Positions 498-27,329 of a stretch of 64,000 nucleotides of DNA are shown here, in pieces. Positions within the stretch are counted from its first letter, which is position 1. Every line of letters starts with the position of its first letter. The notes under the pieces are model-generated. The model was not told where the DNA came from. It saw only the letters and a list, made by a program, of their open reading frames with translations, and ran no database searches. The translations under genes were made by a program, and so were the position numbers. The stretch comes from an uncultured Nitrospiraceae bacterium (GTDB lineage Bacteria; Nitrospirota; Thermodesulfovibrionia; Thermodesulfovibrionales; SM23-35). Location: assembly GCA_963727775.1 (NCBI GenBank), contig CAVSHB010000001.1, positions 320,001 through 384,000 of the forward strand. Direction: 5' to 3'.

Positions 498-1469
498 ATG
501 TCACTGTTTGCATCTATCGACGTCGGTTCCAATACATTGAGGCTCCTGATTGCCGGGATTGAAGAGAACAGAATAATTAATGTATTCTCCGACAGGAAGA
601 TAACGCGTCTCGGCAATAAGGTCTCAACGACCGGGCGGCTTCAGGATGAAAATATCGAAGTCTCGATTGCTGCACTGAAGGAATTCTCAGCCCGGATCTC
701 CGAATACGGCGTTGCTCATATTAAAGCTGTTGCCACGAGCGCCTTGCGTGAAGCGGTAAACTCCGGGTCCTTCATTAAGAAGGCCTTTGAGGACACGGGC
801 ATATCCGTTGAAGTAATTTCAGGAGACAGAGAAGCCGGGCTTACTCTAAAAGGTATCCTCTCTTCATTTTGTGGGTCCGATCTCCGGATACTACCTTCCG
901 CCTTCATCATCGATATCGGGGGAGGGAGCACGGAATGGATCCTCTATCGGGACAAGCATCTTGTCGATATGGGAAGTATCCCGGTAGGTGTGATTAAGCT
1001 TACCCATGATTTTATCAAAACAGACCCTGTCGCTATACATGACCTTAATGGGCTGACTGCTGAAATTGTTTCGGTATTGGACAATCTAAAAATGAAAATC
1101 GCACGACATGTGCGCAGAGATATGCTTTTTATAGGTACCGCCGGGACCTTTACTACTATCGTCGCTATCGACCTCGGGCTCGAAACCTATTCAAGGGAAA
1201 AGATACATCTGCACAAACTGCCTTTAGCCGGATTGCGGGATATGGGGGAGCAACTTACGGCCCTCTCATTGGAAGAAAGGAAAAAAATCGTGGGGCTTGA
1301 ACCTGAGAGAGCAGACTTGATTATACCCGGCATACTATTTACAATTAAGATCATGGAATATTTCGGTTTTAATGAATTAACGGTAAGCGATTACGGGCTG
1401 CTTGAAGGAACTTTGTTGGACCTGAAGGAGGGAATTGGAAAAAGTATTTCAGAGGCCGAAAAGCCTTAA
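498..1469 (+). CDS. ppx: Ppx/GppA family exopolyphosphatase
   Basis: IDVGSNTLRL, ATSALREA, DIGGGSTE and GTAGT motifs of the ASKHA Ppx/GppA family. Confidence 0.9.
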   Translation: MSLFASIDVGSNTLRLLIAGIEENRIINVFSDRKITRLGNKVSTTGRLQDENIEVSIAALKEFSARISEYGVAHIKAVATSALREAVNSGSFIKKAFEDTGISVEVISGDREAGLTLKGILSSFCGSDLRILPSAFIIDIGGGSTEWILYRDKHLVDMGSIPVGVIKLTHDFIKTDPVAIHDLNGLTAEIVSVLDNLKMKIARHVRRDMLFIGTAGTFTTIVAIDLGLETYSREKIHLHKLPLAGLRDMGEQLTALSLEERKKIVGLEPERADLIIPGILFTIKIMEYFGFNELTVSDYGLLEGTLLDLKEGIGKSISEAEKP

Positions 1470-2184
1470 AAAGGAACCGTTCAGATATTGTCCGGGGTGC
1501 GGTCACAGTCTCATTCACAGGATGATCGCCGAATGTATAGACACTTTAAATATCAGGGAAAAAGTTGTGGGGATCGCTCCTATCGGGTGCGCCGTATTTG
1601 CCTACGATTATTTTAATTTTGATGTGCTCGAGGTCGCGCACGGCAGGCCGCCGGCCGCGGCAACCGGTCTTAAACGCGCCATGCCCGACAGGATAATCTT
1701 TTCATATCAGGGTGACGGTGACCTCGCTGCAATAGGAACAGCCGAGATAATCCACGCTGCCAACAGGGGTGAAAATATCTCTGTGTTTTTTGTGAATAAT
1801 GCGACATACGGCATGACCGGAGGCCAAATGGCGCCGACTACCCTCCCGGGCCAGAGGACAACAACAACACCCTCCGGCAGAGAAGTCGGGAAAGAGGGCT
1901 ATCCATTACATATCTCTGAACTCCTTGCGACAATTGAAGGGGCTTCTTATATTGCCAGGACTTCATTAGATTCATGCAAGAACGTAATAAATACAAAGAA
2001 AGCTATAGCGAAGTCATTAATGTACCAGATAGAAGGCAGAGGGTTCAGTCTTGTGGAGATACTTTCGCCATGCCCCGTGGACTGGAAGCTTACGCCAAAG
2101 GACGCGCTGGCATGGATCAAAAAAGAAATGACTTCCGTGTTTCCCCTCGGTATTTTTAAAGACAATTTCAAGGAGAGCGGATAA
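1435..2184 (+). CDS. 2-oxoacid:ferredoxin oxidoreductase beta (TPP-binding) subunit
   Basis: YCPGCGH, HGR, GDGD...NN, YGMTGGQ and SPCP motifs; TTG start. Confidence 0.9.
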   Translation: MEKVFQRPKSLKKEPFRYCPGCGHSLIHRMIAECIDTLNIREKVVGIAPIGCAVFAYDYFNFDVLEVAHGRPPAAATGLKRAMPDRIIFSYQGDGDLAAIGTAEIIHAANRGENISVFFVNNATYGMTGGQMAPTTLPGQRTTTTPSGREVGKEGYPLHISELLATIEGASYIARTSLDSCKNVINTKKAIAKSLMYQIEGRGFSLVEILSPCPVDWKLTPKDALAWIKKEMTSVFPLGIFKDNFKESG

Positions 2185-2733
2185 CTGGAAACCAGGATAA
2201 TAATCGGCGGGTTCGGCGGTCAGGGCATACTCTTATTCGGGAAAATACTTGCTCATGCGGGGATGATCGAAGGCAAAGAGGTAACGTGGTTCCCTTCTTA
2301 CGGGGCGGAAGTGAGAGGAGGGACTGCAAACTGTACCGTGGTTGTCTCAGACGAACTGATAGGCTCCCCCGTCGCCGCAAGTCCCGACATATTAATAGTA
2401 ATGAGCGACGCGTCTCTGAATAAATTTTTGCCGAAACTCAGACAAAACGGCCTTCTGATGTTCGATTCCTCTTTGATCAAGGGGCCTGTTACGCGTACCG
2501 ATGTCGAAACCGTCGGAGTGCCCGCGACAGAAATATCGAGTCAGGCCGGCAATACTAAAGCAGCCAATATGGTCATGCTCGGCGCATTTATCAAGAAGAC
2601 GGGAATATTAAATGAAGCTTCCGTGTTTGAAGCAGTCGAAAGTTCGATGCCGGCCGGTAAAAATAAGAGCACTGAGAATAATAAAAAGGCCGTTAATGAA
2701 GGGATAAGGTTTATTGAAGACAAGAAAAGCTAA
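2185..2733 (+). CDS. 2-oxoacid:ferredoxin oxidoreductase gamma subunit (probable CTG start)
   Basis: The frame upstream of the called ATG (2263) encodes ETRIIIGGFGGQG, the conserved gamma N-terminus; PSYGAEVRGG and NMVMLGA motifs; AGGAG at 2171-2175 lies 9 nt before CTG at 2185. Confidence 0.88.
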   Translation: METRIIIGGFGGQGILLFGKILAHAGMIEGKEVTWFPSYGAEVRGGTANCTVVVSDELIGSPVAASPDILIVMSDASLNKFLPKLRQNGLLMFDSSLIKGPVTRTDVETVGVPATEISSQAGNTKAANMVMLGAFIKKTGILNEASVFEAVESSMPAGKNKSTENNKKAVNEGIRFIEDKKS

Positions 2734-3166
2734 GATATCCGACCTGAAGCAGGTCCAGAAGCTTATAAATGATTTTGCAAAACGCGAGCAGATGATCCCA
2801 AGATCCCTGAATGAGCTTTATGAAACCGTGAGGGATTTCTTTGTATGTGAGGCCGACGGGAAAATATGCGGGGTCTGCGCCCTGCACATCATGTGGGAAG
2901 ACCTCGCAGAGATCCGCTCACTCGCAGTTGACGGTAAATATCAGAAAAAGGGCTTGGGCAGAAATCTTGTCAGGCAATGTCTCAAAGAGGCAAGGGCTTT
3001 AGGTATGAATAAGGTCTTCGCACTTACATACCGGCCTGAATTCTTCAAAAAACTGGGTTTTGCCGGTGTCGATAAGGCAAGCCTTCCTCAGAAGATATGG
3101 GGAGACTGTCTGCGCTGCCACAAGTTCCCCGAATGCGATGAGCACGCTGTCATCATAAACCTGTAA
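2714..3166 (+). CDS. argA: Short GNAT N-acetylglutamate synthase-like acetyltransferase
   Basis: AEIRSLAV, GLGR, FALT, LPQKIWGDC..C..FP.CDE motif typical of short ArgA. Confidence 0.8.
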   Translation: MKTRKAKISDLKQVQKLINDFAKREQMIPRSLNELYETVRDFFVCEADGKICGVCALHIMWEDLAEIRSLAVDGKYQKKGLGRNLVRQCLKEARALGMNKVFALTYRPEFFKKLGFAGVDKASLPQKIWGDCLRCHKFPECDEHAVIINL

Positions 3167-3171
3167 ACCTG

Positions 3172-3333
3172 TTACCAGATCTTTTCGAAAGAGTCCTTCG
3201 GCGCACCGCAAACAGGACAGACCCAACCGTCAGGAAGCTTTTCAAAAGGAGTTTCAGGAAGCACGCCGTAATCCGGGTCTCCGGTTTCAGGGTCGTATAT
3301 ATATCCGCAGACCGTGCACCTGTATTTATCCAT
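3172..3333 (-). CDS. Rubredoxin (53 aa)
   Basis: Manual translation [53 protein letters not shown]; two CxxC motifs; below ORF-track cutoff; overlaps the hisI stop. Confidence 0.95.
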
Positions 3334-3661
3334 TCTTATCTCCTTTCTCAATACTCCTGAAGAAACATGTCTTGTTCCCCGTATGACAGGCGCCGGAACC
3401 GTGTTGGATTACCTTAACAAGCAGTGTGTCCTCATCGCAGTCATAGAGGATCTCCTTTACCTCCTGGACGTGCCCGGATGTTTCCCCTTTCTTCCAGTAT
3501 TTCTGCCTCGACCGCGACCAGAAATGTGTGAACCCTGTATCAAGGGTCATCTCAAGCGATTTTCTGTTCATGTAGGCCATCATCAGTATATCCCCGGTTT
3601 TCACATCCTGGATGATAGCGGGTATTAAGCCTTTGTCGTCATATTTCAATTCAGGTATCAT
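3326..3661 (-). CDS. hisI: Phosphoribosyl-AMP cyclohydrolase
   Basis: [27 protein letters not shown] and ACHTG motifs. Confidence 0.95.
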
Positions 3662-3682
3662 TAGCTCATCTCCATTTTTTAT

Positions 3683-4165
3683 TTACAGTTTATATCCTAT
3701 CTTTCTCAGGAATTCTTTTCTATGCGCCTTGTCCTCGGGCATTTCCACTCCTTTAGGGGGAAAACCGTCTATTACGCCGAGCACGCCTCTGCCTTGGGAT
3801 GTTGCTGCAACGATCACCTCAATCGGGTTTGCAGTCGCACAGAAAATCCCGCATACCTCCGGACAATTTTTTATCCGTGTAAGGACATTAATGGGAAAAG
3901 CATTCTTAAGGAGGATGCAAAAGACATGGCCGGCGCCTATTTCCTGCAGGTCCTTTACGCAGTAACTCACGAGGTCGGCATCATTCCCCTCTGTCCTTAT
4001 CAGGCAAGGTCCTGAAGCCTCTGTGAATGCAGCGCCGAATTTTGCCTGGGGGACGGTCGTCACTATGATTTCATAGAGATCTTCTATGGTTTTAATAAAA
4101 TGTGTCTGCCCCAGGATAATATTACACCCCTCGGGGATATCTATCTTGATTGTCTTCAGCTCCAT
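3683..4165 (-). CDS. Adenosine-specific kinase family (DUF355) protein
   Basis: NIILGQTHFIKT, FTEASGPCL, FCATANP, GRGVLGVIDG; ATG 4165 follows AAGGAGG. Confidence 0.85.
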   Translation of the reverse strand: MELKTIKIDIPEGCNIILGQTHFIKTIEDLYEIIVTTVPQAKFGAAFTEASGPCLIRTEGNDADLVSYCVKDLQEIGAGHVFCILLKNAFPINVLTRIKNCPEVCGIFCATANPIEVIVAATSQGRGVLGVIDGFPPKGVEMPEDKAHRKEFLRKIGYKL

Positions 4166-17831: not shown

Positions 17832-17937
17832 TAATGGCGGACACGGAATTTTCGCTTATTCTCGGTCGTCCCGACCTCCGAGGTAAATTCTTTCTTCGAA
17901 AGAATTTAAAACCGCTCAAATACTGCGTTCGCCATTA
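17832..17937. repeat. Structured ~105-bp palindromic element; related core at 45463-45502
   Basis: 16/20 terminal inverted repeat (TAATGGCG...CGCCATTA) with two internal hairpins. Confidence 0.55.
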
Positions 17938-18248
17938 TTGACCCACAAACTGCTATAGGAAATGTCACGACGAATATCGGAGTCCGACCCAGCGTGCCAC
18001 TCGGTCCGATTTATTACTGCCACCTGTTCCGGACCAAATCTGCCACCTTGGCATGGGGAAGTCTGAACTTCGAATAAGCGTTATTCCGCTGCGAAGTTGC
18101 GGAATAACGTGTGGAGAACATCCTATAGTGCCTCCTGTCAAGACAAAAAACATCTGGGAAATTTACTTAAATATCAATGATCGTTATCCGAGATCTTGCA
18201 AGAACAATAGTCTGCCGTACGTCCATCTGGACGATAGTATTTTTTCTC

Positions 18249-18427
18249 GACGCACTCTCTCACTACAATCGAACTTGATCTCTGATAGTTACGTTTATCC
18301 GACGTGTTCCGCATTGAGCGTACCGCCCATCATCCCTTATCCAGACTCTCAAGTTCAGTGAGAGGCCCTATATTGTTCTCCACGAGGTCTTTCGCCTCAA
18401 CTAAGCCAAGCTCGGGCTCTCTGCGTC
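18249..18427 (-). ncRNA. Putative bridge/seek RNA of IS110 element 1
   Basis: Two stem-closed internal loops; GGCTTAGTT (18407-399) and GTGGAGAAC (18383-75) match the two halves of the reconstructed target. Confidence 0.7.
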
Positions 18428-18496
18428 TTGTTTTTGGGGCCTCCAGAACAGAAACGGCTTCACAGGAAGCCCTCAGTTAAGTTCTTTTGATGTGGC

Positions 18497-19789
18497 CTAT
18501 ATTTGGATATCCCCCTTATTGAGATATTTTGGATCGAATAGCTCCTTCTTTTTCATCAAGGTCCATGCGATAACCAAAAGCTTTGCGGCTATCTTTACAC
18601 GCATCTTCGTACTAATTCCCTTTTCCCTCTGCCGACCTCTGAGCTTATTGGTGTAATAAATCGTAAAATCTTTGTTATGAAAGGAAGCGATTAGAGCAGC
18701 CTGATATAAGGCGTAGCGAAGATCGGCTTTCCCTTGTTTGGAGATTACCGGCGTTACGCTGTTTGAAGTCTTTCCGCTTCGCTCCGCGCAAAGGTCGAAA
18801 CCAGCCATCTTCAGGACCTGCTTGTCGCTCGTAAAGCGAAAGGGATTACCTATCGCCCCGAGAACCTTTGATGAGACATCCGGCCCAAAGCCAGGGATAC
18901 TCAAAAGGCATGGGTATTCCGGAAACTGTAGGCACATATCCTCTATTTTATCTTCCACCTCTTTGATCGTCTCTCGCACCTGATTAAGCATGGATACCAT
19001 CACCTTCGCCTCGAACGGCACTGCGTCTCCTACATAACATCCAATGGAATCAGGGGCTATCTGCCAGATCGCCTGCAGCAGCTTTTGTTGGGCAATATTC
19101 ATTCTGCTGAGGGCAACGTGCCTGCGGAATTCATCGAATTCCATCCCGGCGATCACCGAGGGATTAAGACAGCGGCCGACTACGGCCAGGCTCACCGCTG
19201 GGCCGAAGTGGCGGTCCATTTCAGGGAAATACTGGGCCAGAAGCTGATTGCGGATGCGAACCCGGAGGCCATGTTCCTCTTTCTTGAGTCGTCTCTTTAA
19301 GGAAAGGAGATTCCTCAGATCCCGCATCTTCGGATCCGGATATTCATAGAATAGGAATTTCCCTTGGGAAATGAGGTCGGCTACGTTAGAGGAATCCTTG
19401 GTGTCGTGCTTATCCCATCTGCCATCCAGAAGCGTGCGGTTGTTTTTTACTGCCGTCCCCGCTACCAAAACAACCATATGCCCACACTTAATAAGATGCT
19501 CTCCCAGAGGCTTATGGTAATTGGCTGTGGGCTCAAGACCAAAGACCACCTTTGTAAGGTCATGCTGGACCTTAAGCGCTTCTGTCAGCGTCAGCAGTTT
19601 CTCGAATCCTTCAATCGTGTTGTCAAAGATCACTCCCTTGTGCAGCGTTTTGCCGTTAGCCGTGCCGAAAAAGGCATTGTGCTTCTCTTTAGCCACGTCG
19701 ATGCCGATGATCAAATACTGATCGGAGCCACGTATCTCTTTCTTGACTTGTCGAAACTCCCTAAGTCTGATACCATCTACTTGTTCCAT
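18497..19789 (-). CDS. IS110-family recombinase/transposase
   Basis: GIDVAK, GLEPT, KHDTKDS (DEDD RuvC-like), SIPGFG, RSGK, ISKQG. Confidence 0.95.
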   Translation of the reverse strand: MEQVDGIRLREFRQVKKEIRGSDQYLIIGIDVAKEKHNAFFGTANGKTLHKGVIFDNTIEGFEKLLTLTEALKVQHDLTKVVFGLEPTANYHKPLGEHLIKCGHMVVLVAGTAVKNNRTLLDGRWDKHDTKDSSNVADLISQGKFLFYEYPDPKMRDLRNLLSLKRRLKKEEHGLRVRIRNQLLAQYFPEMDRHFGPAVSLAVVGRCLNPSVIAGMEFDEFRRHVALSRMNIAQQKLLQAIWQIAPDSIGCYVGDAVPFEAKVMVSMLNQVRETIKEVEDKIEDMCLQFPEYPCLLSIPGFGPDVSSKVLGAIGNPFRFTSDKQVLKMAGFDLCAERSGKTSNSVTPVISKQGKADLRYALYQAALIASFHNKDFTIYYTNKLRGRQREKGISTKMRVKIAAKLLVIAWTLMKKKELFDPKYLNKGDIQI

Positions 19790-20187
19790 AGAAACCTCCT
19801 GTCAAAAGAATTTTGTTTCTCCATAAACTTATTCTTACAGGAGGTTTCTATTTTTTAATAGCTATAAAATTAGTCTCCCTTATGATTGAATGGGGAAGTT
19901 TGATCTTATGCCATTTCTATATATAACTAAGCCGGTGCGCCGGATATGGGGATTCGATTAATTCTCCCGGAACTTTTTCTATCGAAGAGGATATGGTTTA
20001 TGGAGCATCTGTCTTATTTTGATCTGCATGAGATCATCCTGATACGAAAATTGAGGCTGAGATTGCGACCATTGCAGCTGGATAGTATCCCAAGGTCTGA
20101 TTTCAGACAATAGGGGAGCATAGCGAAACAGGATGCTGTTTTCGCAGGTTGATAGAGCTATGATTTTTGAGCTATCGCCGGTGTGCA

Positions 20188-20436
20188 TCAGTATCGATCC
20201 GGAGGGCTATTGCACCTGGAAGGGAGCAAATACTCAATCGTGACCATTGTGCCCTTCTTGCAAACCGGGCAGGTATTGATATCGATACCGTAGATTCTGA
20301 GCAACTGATCCTGCCAGGTCTCTGATTTTTCTTCTTCTTCTTCTTTTGTTTCGGTTTTACAACTGCCGATGAGCTTACGGCATAGCGCGATGTTGTCTTT
20401 ACGCTTTCTGTTTGCGAGGAGTCCGAAGTGCCTGAT
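20188..20436 (-). pseudogene. IS91-type transposase C-terminal fragment
   Basis: IRHFGLLANRKR...CPVCKKG...PP; joins FVRIR of the 23864-24458 fragment in frame when the RIT is removed. Confidence 0.85.
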
Positions 20437-20535
20437 TTATGTTATATATTCACTTATGTTGCGTCGTTTGTGAAAGGCCTTGTTATTGCACAATGTCATC
20501 GTTAACGACACAACATAAGTAAATCCCTCTTCGGG

Positions 20536-21531
20536 TTAAAGTGCTTTTAAGAATGCCATCAACCCCGGCTGATCTTTCCACCGTCTTGATTGCTCTGAAG
20601 TAAATATCTCACAGTGGGCAAGTGCCTTTGCCTTCATTTCGAGATCGACCTCAGCATAGACATTTGTGGTATCTAGCGACACATGCCCCAGCCATGCACG
20701 GATTGTATTAATATCCACACCTGCGCGAAGAAGGTGAACTGCGCAGGAATGACGAATTATATGTGCACTGACTCTTTTCGTTCTCATTGAGGGGACTTTG
20801 TTGCTTGCTTTGATAACATAACGCCTAACGAGGGCATGAATGCCGAAGCGAGTGATTGTCTGCCCCCGACAGTTGAGGAAAACCTGTTCGCTATCCTGGC
20901 GATCGGCAATGAGAGTGCGTAAAGTATTGGCTGTTAAAGACCATAAAGGACAGATTCGTGTCTTGCCTCCCTTGCCTTTAATCTTGACTGAAAGCGAATA
21001 ATCCAGGTCGAGATCGTCTACAGTCATATTCGCAGCTTCATGGGCGCGGGCGCCAGTATTGTAAAGAAAAAGAAGTACGGCATAATCTCTAAAGCCTTGT
21101 TTGGTGGAAGTAACGGGAGCATTAAGCAGGGCATCCATTTCTTGTTTGTCGAGATAAGACATCGCAGCCTTTGCAGTTTTTTTGAAAGGGATAGCTCTGA
21201 TCTGTCCACACCAGATGATGTGTTCCGGACATCGTTCGCCGATAAAACCGGCGAGGGCGTGAATTGCGGCAAGGCGCTGGTTGCGAGTGGCTATAGAACA
21301 GGATCGATGCTCCTCTATATAAAGCAGAAAAAGACGAATTACCTCAGGGGATATATGCTCTACAAGCAGCTTGTCTATAGGTTTTCTGACCTTCTCAGCG
21401 ATGAAAGGGAGCATCAAGGCCAGAGCATCGCGATAACTGGATTGTGTATTTAGCGACAGATTACGCTCTTCCACCAAGTATTCCATAAGGAAGCGTCGCA
21501 CCCAATATCCGATAGAAGTTACGTTAGACAT
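20536..21531 (-). CDS. RIT tyrosine recombinase C
   Basis: TGAR, GKGGKTR, HIIRH, WLGH, NVY catalytic residues. Confidence 0.9.
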   Translation of the reverse strand: MSNVTSIGYWVRRFLMEYLVEERNLSLNTQSSYRDALALMLPFIAEKVRKPIDKLLVEHISPEVIRLFLLYIEEHRSCSIATRNQRLAAIHALAGFIGERCPEHIIWCGQIRAIPFKKTAKAAMSYLDKQEMDALLNAPVTSTKQGFRDYAVLLFLYNTGARAHEAANMTVDDLDLDYSLSVKIKGKGGKTRICPLWSLTANTLRTLIADRQDSEQVFLNCRGQTITRFGIHALVRRYVIKASNKVPSMRTKRVSAHIIRHSCAVHLLRAGVDINTIRAWLGHVSLDTTNVYAEVDLEMKAKALAHCEIFTSEQSRRWKDQPGLMAFLKAL

Positions 21532-22468
21532 GATTCACGTCCGATAGAACATAATGTTCAAAACGCAAATTTGCTTCCCGCAAAAGATCAGGAGTCATGC
21601 TCAAATAGCATTGGGTCTCCGCCACATCAGTATGGCCCAAATAGGTTGATAATTGAGGCAGCAAGCGCTGGACATCAGCGCCTTCCCGGTACCAGGCTTC
21701 AAGACGGTGAACTGAAAAAGTGTGACGAAGGTCGTGAATCCTGGGATAGTATCGAGTGCCGTCCCGGCGAGGCATCCCGGATAGGTTTCGCAAACGACTG
21801 AAAGTTTTTTGCATGCGGCCATAGGATAAAGCGTGGCCAGTGCGTGTGGCAAAAAAGGCGGAATCTTCCTTAAGTCGGCAGGGCAACAGTCGCCTTTTTC
21901 CCAGATAGGAGTCAAGGTGGTCAGTTAACCGAGGGCCGATGGGTACGAGACGTGTCTTATAGAATTTGGTATTGCGCACTGTGATAAGGCTATCCGAAAC
22001 GTTAACATCAGCAATCGTTAGAGAAAGCGCTTCGCTGATACGAAGGCCTGTTCCATAAAGGGTAAGCAAAATGGTTCGGAAGGTGGTTGCCTGAAGAGGA
22101 CTTATTGGGGATTTAAGCGAGTTGGTAGCGGAAAGGAGGCGGTGCAGTTCCTCGGTGGTGTAAATATATGGTTCCAGAGTCGCCGGACGTTTAGGTACCA
22201 TCTTTGGAAGCGGAGACTTGTCGATATGACCATGGGTCAGAGCAAAGCGATAGAAACCACAGAGGACTTCATACTTCCGGTGCCAGAAGGTAGTGATCGG
22301 ACCTTCACCTGCAAGGAATGCTGCTGCAGTATCGGGATTAACTTCTTCGATCTCTATATTGCCCATAGCTTTGCAAAAAGATCTGAGTACCACAGCATCA
22401 GACCGGTAACACATACCAATGGACTGTTTTAGCGACACATACTCGGTAACAAGTTCTGAGAGTTTCAT
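21524..22468 (-). CDS. RIT tyrosine recombinase B
   Basis: TGLRISEA, TKFYKTR, HDLRHTF, LSTYLGH. Confidence 0.9.
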   Translation of the reverse strand: MKLSELVTEYVSLKQSIGMCYRSDAVVLRSFCKAMGNIEIEEVNPDTAAAFLAGEGPITTFWHRKYEVLCGFYRFALTHGHIDKSPLPKMVPKRPATLEPYIYTTEELHRLLSATNSLKSPISPLQATTFRTILLTLYGTGLRISEALSLTIADVNVSDSLITVRNTKFYKTRLVPIGPRLTDHLDSYLGKRRLLPCRLKEDSAFFATRTGHALSYGRMQKTFSRLRNLSGMPRRDGTRYYPRIHDLRHTFSVHRLEAWYREGADVQRLLPQLSTYLGHTDVAETQCYLSMTPDLLREANLRFEHYVLSDVNHV

Positions 22469-23706
22469 TCCAGCCCTCCCATATCAAACTTAGCTACCTC
22501 GCGAAGACCTGACAGATTCACCTTGGCATAGATCCTCGTGGAGAGAGAACTTCGATGCCCTAGGTGATCGCCGACCTCCTTGAGGGAGAAGCCCTCGGCA
22601 ACCAGGTGGGCGGCGCACGCATGCCGCAATGAGTGGGGCCCATGATGGTGAGTGCGTATCCCGAGCTTCACCATTCTGTTACTGACCACAGGATAAAGTG
22701 CTCCTAATGAAAAAGGACGATATGGGGGCAAGAGAGTGAGAAATATCTCTCGATATGAAGAGTGGGGACGCACTTCCTGTAAATAGCGGATTATCGCGTT
22801 GCCTACTATTGGGATCAATGGGTATGTTTGTCTTCCTCTCAGCTTAACTCGGGGTACCGACATAAGTCTCTGTTCCCAGTCGATATCGTCAAGCCTGAGA
22901 GTTGCTACCTCAGTTGATCTCAACCCATAGATCGCAAAAAGCATCACGATGGGTTTGTCTCGTATGTCACTGGCTTGATCTGTCTCCATGCTCTCTATCA
23001 AGAGTCTCACGTTTCCCCAAGATGGTCCCGACGGCAATTGTTCTTGGGCAAAGATACGAGGGCCACGTATATCGGGGGCGATTGAAGACGAACACCACCC
23101 CCGTGAAGCCGCGTACTTGAAAAAGGCCTTCAGCGCGGTCGCCATGTGTTTAACCGATATGCGACAATTGCCCTTGTCACCGTAATGGGTAAGAAACGCG
23201 TCAATATCTTTGAGGCAAACGGCTGAGATATCACAACTCCGAGTGCCATACCAGCGTAGAAACCGTTCAACGTAAGAGCAGTTCCCTCGGATAGTCTGAG
23301 AAGTGAACCCTCGTTCGTTCTTCATCCATGTCCTGAAATCTTCAAGCAAATGACCAAACGGAATGGAAGTATCTTCTCTCCAACAGCCCAAAAAACGTAG
23401 CCACGATCTTGCTGCATTGACAAAGCGACTGCGAGTACAGTGCGGATTAAGCGCTTTTCCCCAATATCGTTCCCGTTCTGTCCATCCTCGGGCGACAGCT
23501 TCGACCTGATTCAGGGTTACTCCGTTTTCAAAAGAAATACGTAGCTTCTTTGCGACCCATAAAAGTTCTCGCGCAATGTTCTGTAAAGTCGAGAGAGAAT
23601 ATCCTTCTTGCTCGCAGTGCTTAAGATAACGCTCCCTCTCCTCTTTGTACGGGGCCTTCTTGTGACGGGATAGAATTGAGAGTTTTGTGTAAAGCTTTTC
23701 AAACAT
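22465..23706 (-). CDS. RIT tyrosine recombinase A
   Basis: YGLRSTEV, HSLRH, HLGHR, IYAKV; likely ATG at 23706 after AGAGGAGG. Confidence 0.9.
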   Translation of the reverse strand: MFEKLYTKLSILSRHKKAPYKEERERYLKHCEQEGYSLSTLQNIARELLWVAKKLRISFENGVTLNQVEAVARGWTERERYWGKALNPHCTRSRFVNAARSWLRFLGCWREDTSIPFGHLLEDFRTWMKNERGFTSQTIRGNCSYVERFLRWYGTRSCDISAVCLKDIDAFLTHYGDKGNCRISVKHMATALKAFFKYAASRGWCSSSIAPDIRGPRIFAQEQLPSGPSWGNVRLLIESMETDQASDIRDKPIVMLFAIYGLRSTEVATLRLDDIDWEQRLMSVPRVKLRGRQTYPLIPIVGNAIIRYLQEVRPHSSYREIFLTLLPPYRPFSLGALYPVVSNRMVKLGIRTHHHGPHSLRHACAAHLVAEGFSLKEVGDHLGHRSSLSTRIYAKVNLSGLREVAKFDMGGLE

Positions 23707-23863
23707 GACCGGACCTCCTCTAATAGAGACTTTCCAGCCATATAACGGCAATTACTTATGTGTTGTCAAATCAAAAATAATCATTGCAAATTAAGAAAAT
23801 TGACTGACTTCACAACATAAGTGAATACATAACATAAATCAGGTTATGTGTTTAAGCACATAA

Positions 23864-24458
23864 CCTGATGCGCACAAATCGATGCGGAAGCACATGAAGA
23901 AGGAACCTTCTTATGAACTCATCGGCCTTAAGAGTCATGATCTTTTGTTTATCACCATCGGCATAGTCCCGCCAGCGGAAGGAAACATTGCCGTCTTCAA
24001 CGTTTAGGACACGATTATTACTGATAGCAATCCTGTGGGTATATCTGCCCAGATACTTGAGGACACCCTCGGCGCCGTCAAAAGGCGGCTTGCAATATAC
24101 AACCCACTTCTTATGGTAGAACTGTCCTCTGAACACCTCAAAGGTTCCGGGGTCTTTAAGATGACGGATACCGCCAGGGAAGATAAGATCACCTGATTCA
24201 AACCTGTTTTTGAGATGGTCCAGGAACTTGCCCCTGAACAATGAGGACATAACCCTTACAGGCATGAAAAAACCTTTCCTGCACGATACCCAATGTTTTC
24301 CATCAGGTGACAATCCGCCGCCGGGTACGACACAGTGAATATGGGGATGATCCATAAGGTTTTGTCCCCAGGTGTGAAGGATGCCGATAAAGCCTGTATG
24401 TGCGCCGAGGTGTTTCGGATTATTGGAGAGCTCCATAAGTGTCTCGGAGACTGCCTGA
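23864..24458 (-). pseudogene. IS91-type (HUH) transposase central fragment, N-terminus deleted
   Basis: LHTWG, HPHIHC (HUH), YLGRYTHRIAISN, RRFLLHVLP. Confidence 0.9.
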
Positions 24459-25127: not shown

Positions 25128-25466
25128 ATCCAATCTCCTTTGAATCGATATGCGCCGACGAAGGCCGACGGGGAAACAAAGGAAATTGTAAAAAGACTTC
25201 GATTGTTCAACAAGGGGGGGAATAGCAGACTAACTTCTACAACTCAGAAAAAGGTCTATCTTATCCAGAAAAGGCTCACGCCTCGTTAACCACCGCGCAG
25301 CGGTTTAGTTCTTCGGTACAAACTCTTCATGAGTTGCCGCTTCGCATAAATGTGGAGCTTGCTATATTGTTGTAGAGTTAGGCCTTGTTAAAGAAGGCTA
25401 TACTCTTTCTTGATTCAGACCAATGTGCGAGTTGGTTAAATCCAAACCAAAGAAAGGAGTATAGCC

Positions 25467-26729
25467 ATGAAGAAGAGTAAAACAAAAAAGTTTAAAGTAG
25501 TCAATGGTAGAACGATGATTGTGACAGCTGATATGGGAAAGGATAGACATTTTGGATACTGGCGCTGTCCGGACGGAAGCGATGTGAAGCCCTTTGCCTT
25601 CTGGAACAACGGCAGGGGTTTCCAAGAGTTCTGGGATCGTGTATCTTATGCCAAAAAGCTCCATAACATCGAAGATATTGTTTTTGGATACGAGTCCACC
25701 GGGCCGTATGCCGAACCTCTTGTTCATTTCATGCGTGCGAGAGGCGTACACATGGTACAAGTAAGCCCTATGCACACTAAGAGGCTTAAGGAGCTTCAGG
25801 GTAATTCGCCGAACAAGACCGACCAGAAAGACCCAAAGGTTATCGCTGATATTATGGCACTTGGCCACGCCCTGACTGTAGTGATCCCGGAAGGTCCAGC
25901 GGCCGAACTCAGGAGGCTCACTCAGGCCAGGGAAAGGAGCAACGAGCGTTATGTATCCCTGGTGAACCAGCTCCAGAGCTTGCTTGCGATTATCTTTCCT
26001 GAGTTTTTGCAGGTAATGAAGGATGTAAAGACGTTGACTGCCCGATATCTCCTTGCGCAGTGCCCAGCACCCAAGGATATTGTCGCGTACAGTCTTGATA
26101 ATTTGAGTGCAACGATCAATAAGGTCAGCCGCGGAAAGCTGAAGGAAGATCGCGCCAAGGCCCTCTATGAGGCTGCAACAGCTTCTATAGGTGTAACCGA
26201 AGGCATGACGAGCATTATACGTGAGATAAGAGAACTTCTTATCGCCATGGACGCTGCTGAGTCCTTTACCGGGGATCTGGAAAAGGAAATGGGGTATTAT
26301 CTGAAGCAGATTCCCTACAGTGGCTCGATCCTCTCGATAAAGGGGATTAAAGAGGTTACCACTGCCGGTCTTATCGGTGAAGTGGGTGATTTTCGGAAGT
26401 TTCAAACCCTCTCCGAGATCCTAAAGCTCGCAGGGCTGGACCTTTATGAGATCAGTTCTGGCCAATACAAGGGGAAGCGACGCATATCTAAGCGAGGCCG
26501 TCACCTGCTGCGTAAACTTTTGTACTTTGCCTCGCTCAACACAGTCCGCAGAGGTGGAATAATGCACGATCAATATCAAAAGTACCTTGAGCGGGGCATG
26601 CCTAAGACCAAGGCGCTGATCGCCGTAGCAAGAAAACTTCTTGGAATCATATTTGCTGTTGTGCGTGACCAAAGTGTATACAAAAAAGATTTCTCTATAG
26701 TCTCACTTCAATACCAGGAGGCTGCATAA
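25467..26729 (+). CDS. IS110-family recombinase/transposase
   Basis: ADMGK, GYEST, KTDQKD (DEDD), SIKGI, SSGQ, ISKRG. Confidence 0.95.
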   Translation: MKKSKTKKFKVVNGRTMIVTADMGKDRHFGYWRCPDGSDVKPFAFWNNGRGFQEFWDRVSYAKKLHNIEDIVFGYESTGPYAEPLVHFMRARGVHMVQVSPMHTKRLKELQGNSPNKTDQKDPKVIADIMALGHALTVVIPEGPAAELRRLTQARERSNERYVSLVNQLQSLLAIIFPEFLQVMKDVKTLTARYLLAQCPAPKDIVAYSLDNLSATINKVSRGKLKEDRAKALYEAATASIGVTEGMTSIIREIRELLIAMDAAESFTGDLEKEMGYYLKQIPYSGSILSIKGIKEVTTAGLIGEVGDFRKFQTLSEILKLAGLDLYEISSGQYKGKRRISKRGRHLLRKLLYFASLNTVRRGGIMHDQYQKYLERGMPKTKALIAVARKLLGIIFAVVRDQSVYKKDFSIVSLQYQEAA

Positions 26730-26743
26730 CTTATAGTATTGGC

Positions 26744-26908
26744 GTGTAAGCGGGGAGATTACCGACCTGATACCTAAGGCGGCTGAGCCGACCTTCATGC
26801 GGAGCTTGTAACTCCCCGCTTGCACCTTAGTCTCGATTAAGCAAGGTCAGGGCTCTGTTGAGACCCTCGAATTACCAGTGTCAGGCAAGGTGCTACACCA
26901 AAGACTAA
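26744..26908 (+). ncRNA. Putative bridge RNA of IS110 element 2
   Basis: Hairpin 1 internal loop has ACCTGATAC and ATGCGGAG matching the target; hairpin 2 loop has AGCAAG and ACCAG matching the donor junction. Confidence 0.8.
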
Positions 26909-27329
26909 AGTGACTTCCTCCTAATGGAGATGGAAGTGAGAAGGTTGATATAAGGTTAAGTGAAAGGAGCCAAGAGGAGGCATAAAAAAGAGAAACGCCG
27001 AATCCAGGGGATACCGTAATATGGGTCATGCTGAGATAATCGATCCTATAGCTTTCTACGAAGCCGCTTTTTCAGAATTGGCTCTCAAACATGCAGAATG
27101 GATTACGTAATGAGACAAGGGATCTGGGGGCAAAGAACGAAGCAGAAACCATTGAAGCCAGGAAACCTTAGTAGTGGCTTGTCTCTATCAGAGGGGAGTT
27201 ACTCCGTAAAAAGTTCTTGACAATAATAAACCAGTATCAGGTGGACCTCGCGGTGGCCGGGTTCTTCAGAACGTATCGAGTGGGTCAGATAACCTTTTCA
27301 TAAGGTCTCCACTTTGGTAAAATAATGTC

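Follow-up and report, generated by a model that had tools for sequence, protein, structure and literature searches.

Members of the IS110 family, including the IS1111 group, are known to aim at other mobile elements, and IS4321/IS5075, ISKpn4, ISPa11 and ISEc21 are established examples in the consulted sections of PMC11187229. The same sections describe sub-terminal inverted repeats of 11–13 bp, lying 7 and 3 bp inside the ends, for the IS1111 elements. For IS621, the consulted parts of PMC11208160 and PMC13626964 provide the basis, by homology, for a circle, a junction promoter and an RNA-bridged strand exchange.

In the window (the whole stretch of 64,000 nucleotides analysed here, G000:C1:320001-384000; C1, C2 and C3 are contigs of the same genome), an IS110 element sits in a hairpin-plus-GGYTTA-GT motif that occurs at both ends of an element carrying an integrase and an IS91 transposase. 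It is likely, with a probability of roughly 0.85, that the IS110 element was led there by a predicted bridge RNA spelling this motif. Judged from the sequences, IS91-family ends would be an addition to the known list of targets. Integrase-bearing members of the IS91 family are listed in ISfinder, and in other bacteria elements of this family spread resistance genes. The literature searched yielded no report of an IS110 element aimed at IS91 ends (supplementary target tables, subscription papers and ISfinder/TnCentral lay outside that search), nor any paper on integrase-bearing IS91 ends.

Family assignment and boundaries of the IS110 element

Read rightwards from 17706, the window holds the IS110 element and, in order, the 3′ part of an IS91 transposase, an RIT-type element with three integrases, the middle portion of the same transposase, a tyrosine recombinase that is truncated, and a second, unrelated IS110 element. 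The family of the latter (25349-27243) has three further copies in the genome, one of them with the left flank of the window copy. The sequence at 17832-17942 belongs to a family of palindromic repeats that occurs dozens of times in the genome.

The IS110 transposase (430 aa, 18497..19789, minus strand) scores above the cut-offs for both PF01548 and PF02371 and reaches 168.8 bits against a cut-off of 140 for NF033542. In the alignment to IS621/ISCro4, D31, E86, the D-x-x-D in the region of 129-132 and a Ser near 338 fall on the catalytic motifs of IS621, giving the N-terminal DEDD RuvC-like domain and C-terminal Ser domain of the IS110 family. Its nearest named relatives are from Nitrospirota. 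An inverted repeat (19793-19808 / 19838-19852) that is similar to TTGACAGGAGG of the right end takes in the ribosome-binding site of the transposase, a possible means of translational control.

The element spans 18120..19925 (minus strand), that is, 1806 bp between two GT cores, the right copy at 18118..18119 and the left at 19926..19927. Long terminal inverted repeats are absent, and one of the two short cores is the element's own, as in the IS110 family generally. The preliminary description had read a 3-bp GTT core from the AAC repeat at 18117-19 and 19925-27. However, the right junction in homologues is GT-C, GT-A or GT-G, the left junction being GT-T in ends that were located with a GTTATAT pattern. 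Because the right junctions vary after GT, the duplicated core is GT (AC at 18118-19 and 19926-27), GTT is ruled out, and the third letter belongs to the element. The length to be deleted to restore the empty site is 1808 bp with either core.

These boundaries were fixed by copies with differing flanks, namely the independent copy C3:109137-110959 and the variants on C2 and at C1:292 kb, together with homologue junctions. The same copies dispose of an alternative boundary at a TCC repeat, which had been named as grounds for doubting the targeting and which none of them uses.

The non-coding DNA measures 377 nt downstream and 136 nt upstream of the transposase, which is the layout of the IS1111 group. 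Inverted repeats of 11–13 bp were not found in sub-terminal position, the only sequence common to both ends being the 5-bp TATAG, 4 bp inside each. Since the 3′ RNA is present but these repeats are absent, we classify the element from its sequence as an IS110 family member and do not file it as IS1111; the proposed parallel with IS1111 members holds as an analogy, but not as membership.

By analogy with work on IS621 and ISEc11-type elements, the element would form a circle in which TTGACA (18136..18141, minus strand), the predicted −35 box, is joined to TATATA (19920..19925, minus strand), the predicted −10 box. TTGACA lies 17–18 nt before the first base after the core of the joined left end in 80 of the 89 elements with both ends, a conserved spacing, and the conservation of TATATA is partly by construction, left ends having been located by a TATATA-type motif. 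The junction promoters of IS621 and ISEc11/ISEc21 have a like arrangement in the consulted parts of PMC11208160 and PMC11187229. No circle junction was seen among the contigs of four sequencing runs, and contigs are unable to show its absence.

A predicted bridge RNA whose guides covary with the flanks

The core of the predicted bridge RNA (18249..18427, minus strand) lies in the 3′ non-coding region and consists of an outer stem, a target loop and a donor loop. Its 34-pair structure, assessed in 32 hand-picked homologues, has 96.2% of cells paired and 15 pairs with two-sided changes, a result reached by 0 of 500 shuffles; RNAalifold gives further evidence for the core. Among these 32 homologues neither target-loop helix has a two-sided change. 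A single-sequence fold of the non-coding region is not significant (z −1.18), and the bridge RNA region has no match in Rfam.

On the minus strand, GGCTTAGTT (18407-18399) and GTGGAGAAC (18383-18375) are separated by a GAGG/CCTC hairpin (18398-18384), and AG.CCC / GGG.CT closes the loop. For both 9-mers to occur by chance in the 377-nt region, the expectation is about 2e-6 under uniform composition. A second loop holds GGATG (18335-18331) and TAAC (18291-18288), the predicted left and right donor guides. All motifs of the target loop are found where they had been placed previously, but two base pairs of the closing helix given earlier are in conflict with the donor arm's basal stem, and it is in the latter that compensatory changes are found.

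A tblastn-confirmed scan for relatives gave 80 genome loci and 80 metagenome loci. Their 3′ regions form a single scaffold with two variable stretches, one on either side of the GAGG/CCTC hairpin. In the genome set with the own-genome copies added (49 distinct pairs on the left, 51 on the right), guide–flank matches on either side were more numerous than in any of 5000 permutations, a test that is inflated by kinship of the sequences. Switches of the guide with a matching switch of the site are also visible by eye in L020, L061, L066, L077-L084, L087 and L094.

For the left target guide (TGGCTTA plus the GT core, 18400..18408, minus strand), all seven positions covary with the left flank. For the right target guide (GGAGA plus AC, pairing with GT-TCTCC, 18375..18381, minus strand), matches at positions 1-7 are 49, 50, 47, 32, 22, 18 and 10 of 51 against permuted values of 28.5, 29.4, 26.6, 18.2, 13.2, 17.4 and 10.0, so that positions 1-5 covary with the right flank and 6-7 do not. 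Two 9/9 guide matches had been claimed earlier; both are present and the guides do covary with the flanks, but since covariation beyond the core is confined to positions 1-5, the two final letters of the right match are scaffold and about 7 of its 9 letters act as guide.

The donor guides also lie where they had been described, and they remain predicted. For the left one (18331..18335, minus strand), GGATG becomes GTATT in one clade as the donor changes from AGGAT to AGTAT (donor end TATAGTAT), which counts as one event. The right one (18288..18291, minus strand) is nearly invariant, with the single case of L020, in which TAAC becomes TATC and the left junction is GATAT. A structured non-coding region with target and donor loops covarying with target and donor is itself a feature of the IS110 family.

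The target is an internal part of the host end

The host is assigned to the IS91 family by its Y2 HUH transposase (PF04986 and NF033538), which is broken in the window and whole in L006. Its 3′ part (20188..20436, minus strand, the stop-side coordinate being approximate) was identified by translation and has a C-terminus of the L006 type. The middle part (23852..24436, minus strand) lacks the N-terminal ~120 aa and scores 242 bits for NF033538 against a cut-off of 125. A tyrosine recombinase (PF13495 and PF00589; 24531..25133, minus strand) is truncated to 200 aa from the 311 aa seen in L006.

The transposase is split by the RIT-type element (20431..23869, minus strand), with three PF00589 genes and inverted 6-bp sites at 20431, 23838 and 23864. 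This element and its counterpart at C3:215054-218465 occupy the same 6-bp site of the IS91 transposase in opposite orientations. It is bounded by inverted 6-bp sites, with a 20-bp palindrome alongside, and the difference may be due to inversion by its own recombinases or to two insertions. A deletion junction at 24452 fuses the integrase with the middle portion of the IS91 transposase. Identity to the C3 copy is only 77% in the integrase half of the window host and 99% in the rest, and for this reason the window host is regarded as a mosaic.

Both host ends carry palindromes. At the downstream end, which would be the oriIS side by analogy with the IS91 layout in the consulted part of PMC13181058, the inner part (19928..19943, minus strand) consists of a hairpin, CCGG-loop-CCGG, followed by GGCTTA, the left half of the target. 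The outer part (18071..18117, minus strand) comprises the linker, a long hairpin (18080-18108) and the terminus (18071/18072), and the IS110 insertion now parts the two downstream-end palindromes by 1.8 kb. The long hairpin was considered as a REP that the host had entered, an idea dismissed by its being part of the host end in un-invaded elements. The upstream, terIS-side end (25290..25311, plus strand) has a hairpin and GGTTTA-GT-TC, a second target motif that is unoccupied here; this far end, GCGGTTTAGTTC, terminates at 25311. At 11 downstream ends the adjacent tetranucleotide always has C as its last letter, but it is GTTC or GTCC in only two. Upstream ends (25290-25315 in the window, and L171-L200) usually continue with T-A or T-C past GTTC, even in identical copies with different flanks, which could reflect either a preference for certain targets or a terminus that varies.

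When the intact L006 IS91 transposase was used as query, 20 of 101 genomes gave matches and 28 non-own loci were returned. At these public IS91/integrase loci, several of which come from the same genomes, the motif CGGYWHMGTYC was present at the downstream end in 22 of 26 scorable cases and at the upstream end in 13 of 16, the background being 25 in 20000 random 120-nt windows. The downstream order is motif, linker, long hairpin and terminus, the last 47–48 bp from the core. Three identical G023 copies diverge exactly at this terminus, and the three own-genome copies do likewise at 18071. The empty site genuinely belongs to the interior of the host end, and its un-occupied allele can be read directly in a public contig (X3 record 17) and in L171/L172. 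The empty site reconstructed previously was therefore real, being present in un-invaded host elements, but with GT and not GTT as its core. The view that the guide spells a conserved terminal motif of the host needs a similar adjustment: the motif does occur at both ends, but the downstream site is subterminal, about 47 bp inside.

The right guide of the window element fits the local host allele TCTCC, which was found in 0 of 22 un-invaded downstream ends, and its G could also pair with the common T of the host alleles. Overall the window site matches the guide at 13 of 14 positions, the miss being a possible wobble.

Close relatives occupy either end of the same type of host

If the guide directs insertion, relatives with the same guide should be found in the same host ends. 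Of the public elements, 79 have both a guide and a left flank of 300 bp or more; among these, an integrase or Y2 match within 600 bp was found for 4 of 4 elements with a GGYTTA guide and for 0 of 75 with other guides; the four form one clade, so that such counts are not independent trials. This bears out the expected enrichment of the flanks for integrase+IS91 ends. We rely on the gene-based count, as a test by sequence pattern is partly circular (the end pattern includes guide letters). L146 was dropped from the counts for a mis-parsed guide, and 61 of the 160 public loci had no parsed guide or lacked 20 nt of left flank.

The four relatives with a GG(C/T)TTA left guide (L006, L086, L091 and L160) all lie in the hairpin+GGYTTA-GT motif beside an integrase or IS91 transposase, the first three at the upstream host end and L160 at the downstream end, like the window element. 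A fifth case, L207, was found from the IS91 side and has the left end of this IS110 in the same place; the locus (G036, L186/L207) supplies one of the four downstream ends without an intact motif and instead carries the IS110 left end and first codons at the same GT. The nesting of one mobile element in a motif of another, as first proposed for the window, is thus repeated in the public data. In L091, a single short contig, the ends are swapped, the IS110 having the host upstream-end hairpin on its left (330-375) and the host downstream terminus on its right (2170-2220); inversion between two motif copies, either occupied or inverted, would produce this arrangement. L073 was left out despite its IS91/integrase neighbours; there (1290-4000) the nesting is reversed, an intact integrase+IS91 element with extra palindromes interrupting an IS110 transposase of the same clade.

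In a tree built without the named reference elements, the GGYTTA-guide elements make one subclade (6 rows, SH-aLRT 91), and this means one origin with several separate insertions. The subclade is rare, since the GGYTTA-type guide pattern was found in 0 of 150 relatives and, in 400 genomes of the phylum, once, by chance, inside an unrelated gene. Searching 316 other genomes of the order with the junction pattern gave five matches (L006 again, L207 and three by chance), a control pattern giving four.

Copies in the same genome and alternative explanations

The genome itself holds four near-identical copies and two variants. Three copies are nested and have both flanks in common: the window, C1:1571830 to the contig end, and C3:218.9-220.8 kb. 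They may represent one insertion event, and an explanation that we hold tentatively, though as a serious one, is that the IS110 element is a passenger and not a parasite, inserted once and copied three times by rolling-circle movement of a host that works with IS110 inside. The window, C1:1571830 and C3:220825 copies indeed carry the same IS110 and host end, with flanks that differ exactly at the host terminus, and the window and C1-end copies are identical over 2369 bp. On the other hand, the C3 nested copy and the free copy at C3:109 kb have three SNPs in common that are absent from the other two nested copies, which would fit separate insertion or gene conversion; the SNPs are ambiguous between one host-copied event and three events. 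A target-specific element would fill every host copy anyway, and the RIT element interrupts the host transposase in both complete copies, this transposase being already broken in this genome by RIT and a deletion. The explanation concerns the consequence of the insertion and is compatible with guided targeting of the host ends.

Two side observations concern the C3 contig. A 308-bp segment, 96% identical between its two copies, begins exactly at the host terminus at C3:220826-221133 and after unrelated sequence at C3:82695-83003. A mini-element at C3:224026-224083 is composed of the terminal 49 bp of the host end plus the tip of that end in inverted orientation. It amounts to one guide's left half-site joined to another guide's right half-site, as might result from template switching at AAC or IS110-mediated exchange.

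The flanks of the fourth copy, C3:109137-110959, are not those of the other three: it is inserted behind the stop codon of an ordinary ORF and in no IS91 element. Insertion at unrelated sequences had been put forward as evidence against targeting, and this applies to one of the four near-identical copies, at a site that still matches the guide at 12 of 14 positions. No free GT-core site in the genome matches better than 12/14, and seven other 12/14 sites are free. The copy, with no IS91 gene near, suits the idea of opportunistic matching, in which the guide is a 14-bp sequence without any special tie to IS91 and the host ends are just its commonest perfect match; the mechanism of IS621 is likewise sequence-only in the consulted part of PMC11208160. 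We consider this improbable, since 5 of 5 public insertion sites are in host ends and sister guides strike three separate parts of these ends. Mechanistically it is the same as the preferred reading and differs only in denying selection for the host.

The sister guides are those of the two variants and their relatives. In the truncated C2 variant (95% identical) the guide reads GGTTTA-GT-TCTTC, equal to the host upstream-end sequence at 25290-25315; the site of this variant is not classable because its left flank is lost. In the C1:292 kb variant (89% identical) and in L088 the guides read AATAAGC-GT-CATTC, and both elements occupy small palindromes built from the host terminal hairpin. The guides of the subclade therefore appear, from their sequences, to address three separate parts of the same host ends.

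Slightly less probable still is targeting led by structure, with the recombinase favouring extruded hairpins or single-stranded HUH-element ends and the guide only fine-tuning, for every IS91-end site does follow directly on, or lie within, a hairpin, and the ISKpn4 and ISPa11 sites are described as potentially folded in the consulted part of PMC11187229, but many homologues follow other guides at sites without an evident hairpin (e.g. the six copies L079-L084) and the C3:109 kb site has no host hairpin.

Guided targeting of the host motif is the reading we prefer. By homology to IS621, the circle junction (AGGAT-GT-TATA) would be bound by the donor loop and the host motif by the target loop, with strand exchange at GT carried out by the DEDD/Ser recombinase. 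The motif is present at each host end, in inverted orientation, so that a single guide would address two sites in every host copy; and as targeting goes by sequence, an occasional near match elsewhere is used.

A possible preference of the wider clade

Outside the subclade, 79 of 99 elements have CCC-type right guides. A RAYT-like Y1 gene lies within 700 bp of 13 of the 75 CCC-type elements with enough flank and of 0 of 21 others, mostly at 30–110 bp from the gene start or stop; this count used five queries taken from the same loci, found by Pfam over 92 of 118 flanking ORFs. One of two RAYT-like proteins tested was above the NF047646 cut-off. These data support, but do not prove, a clade-wide taste for HUH-element ends.

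A broader proposal, which we put at somewhat below even odds, is that the whole IS110 clade is specialised on HUH-transposon ends. A common guide, xxxxxAC-GT-CCC, would lead to RAYT-like Y1 ends; one Nitrospirota subclade would have rewritten it to IS91/Y2 ends and then diversified it to cover the upstream end, the subterminal motif downstream and the terminal hairpin, following the host alleles down to single letters. If so, a host occupied at both ends would carry IS110 copies in inverted orientation, and these would flip its interior or mobilise it, a behaviour suggested by L091.

Comparison with known systems

The elements described here form a natural series, 79–95% identical and with three in one genome, that keeps the same scaffolds while the guides differ in step with the sites, and this renders guide rewriting of bridge RNAs testable. 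The series also offers a GT-core recombinase with a predicted 3′ RNA and a natural 7+2+5 target. An element lodging in ori/ter regions of the IS91 family is of interest, resistance genes being spread by this family elsewhere; we make no claim of an effect on the host or of a link to resistance here.

Compared with the consulted descriptions of IS621/ISCro4 (PMC11208160; PDB 8wt6, 9t56), the DEDD and Ser domains align, and a two-loop RNA with left and right target and donor guides, a 2-nt core, a 7+2+5 target and a predicted junction promoter are found in both. The differences are that the RNA is 3′ of the transposase here and predicted from sequence, that the core is GT and not CT, that the protein has 430 aa against about 330, and that the target is an IS91-type end rather than a REP.

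With the IS1111-type elements aimed at mobile-element ends, our element has in common a 3′ non-coding region and a motif repeated at both ends of the other element, but its host is an IS91-family element, predicted to move by rolling circle, its site is subterminal at one end, and the 11–13 bp sub-terminal inverted repeats are missing. Like ISKpn4/ISPst6 (attC), ISPa11 and ISPpu9 (REP) and ISEc21 (IS3 transposase codons), as presented in the consulted part of PMC11187229 and in an abstract on ISPpu9, it has guides for mobile or repeated sequences; unlike them it uses another host, and a single clade has several guides on one host's ends and, in the outgroup, apparently addresses RAYT-like elements.

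The host resembles IS91, IS801 and IS1294, as covered in the consulted part of PMC13181058, in its Y2 transposase above the NF033538 cut-off, its subterminal palindromes and the GTTC beside the upstream-end palindrome; in two of three G023 copies, GTCC or GTTC stands next to the downstream end. The host differs from them in carrying an upstream tyrosine recombinase in place of orf121, and in repeating the hairpin+GTYC motif inside the downstream end.
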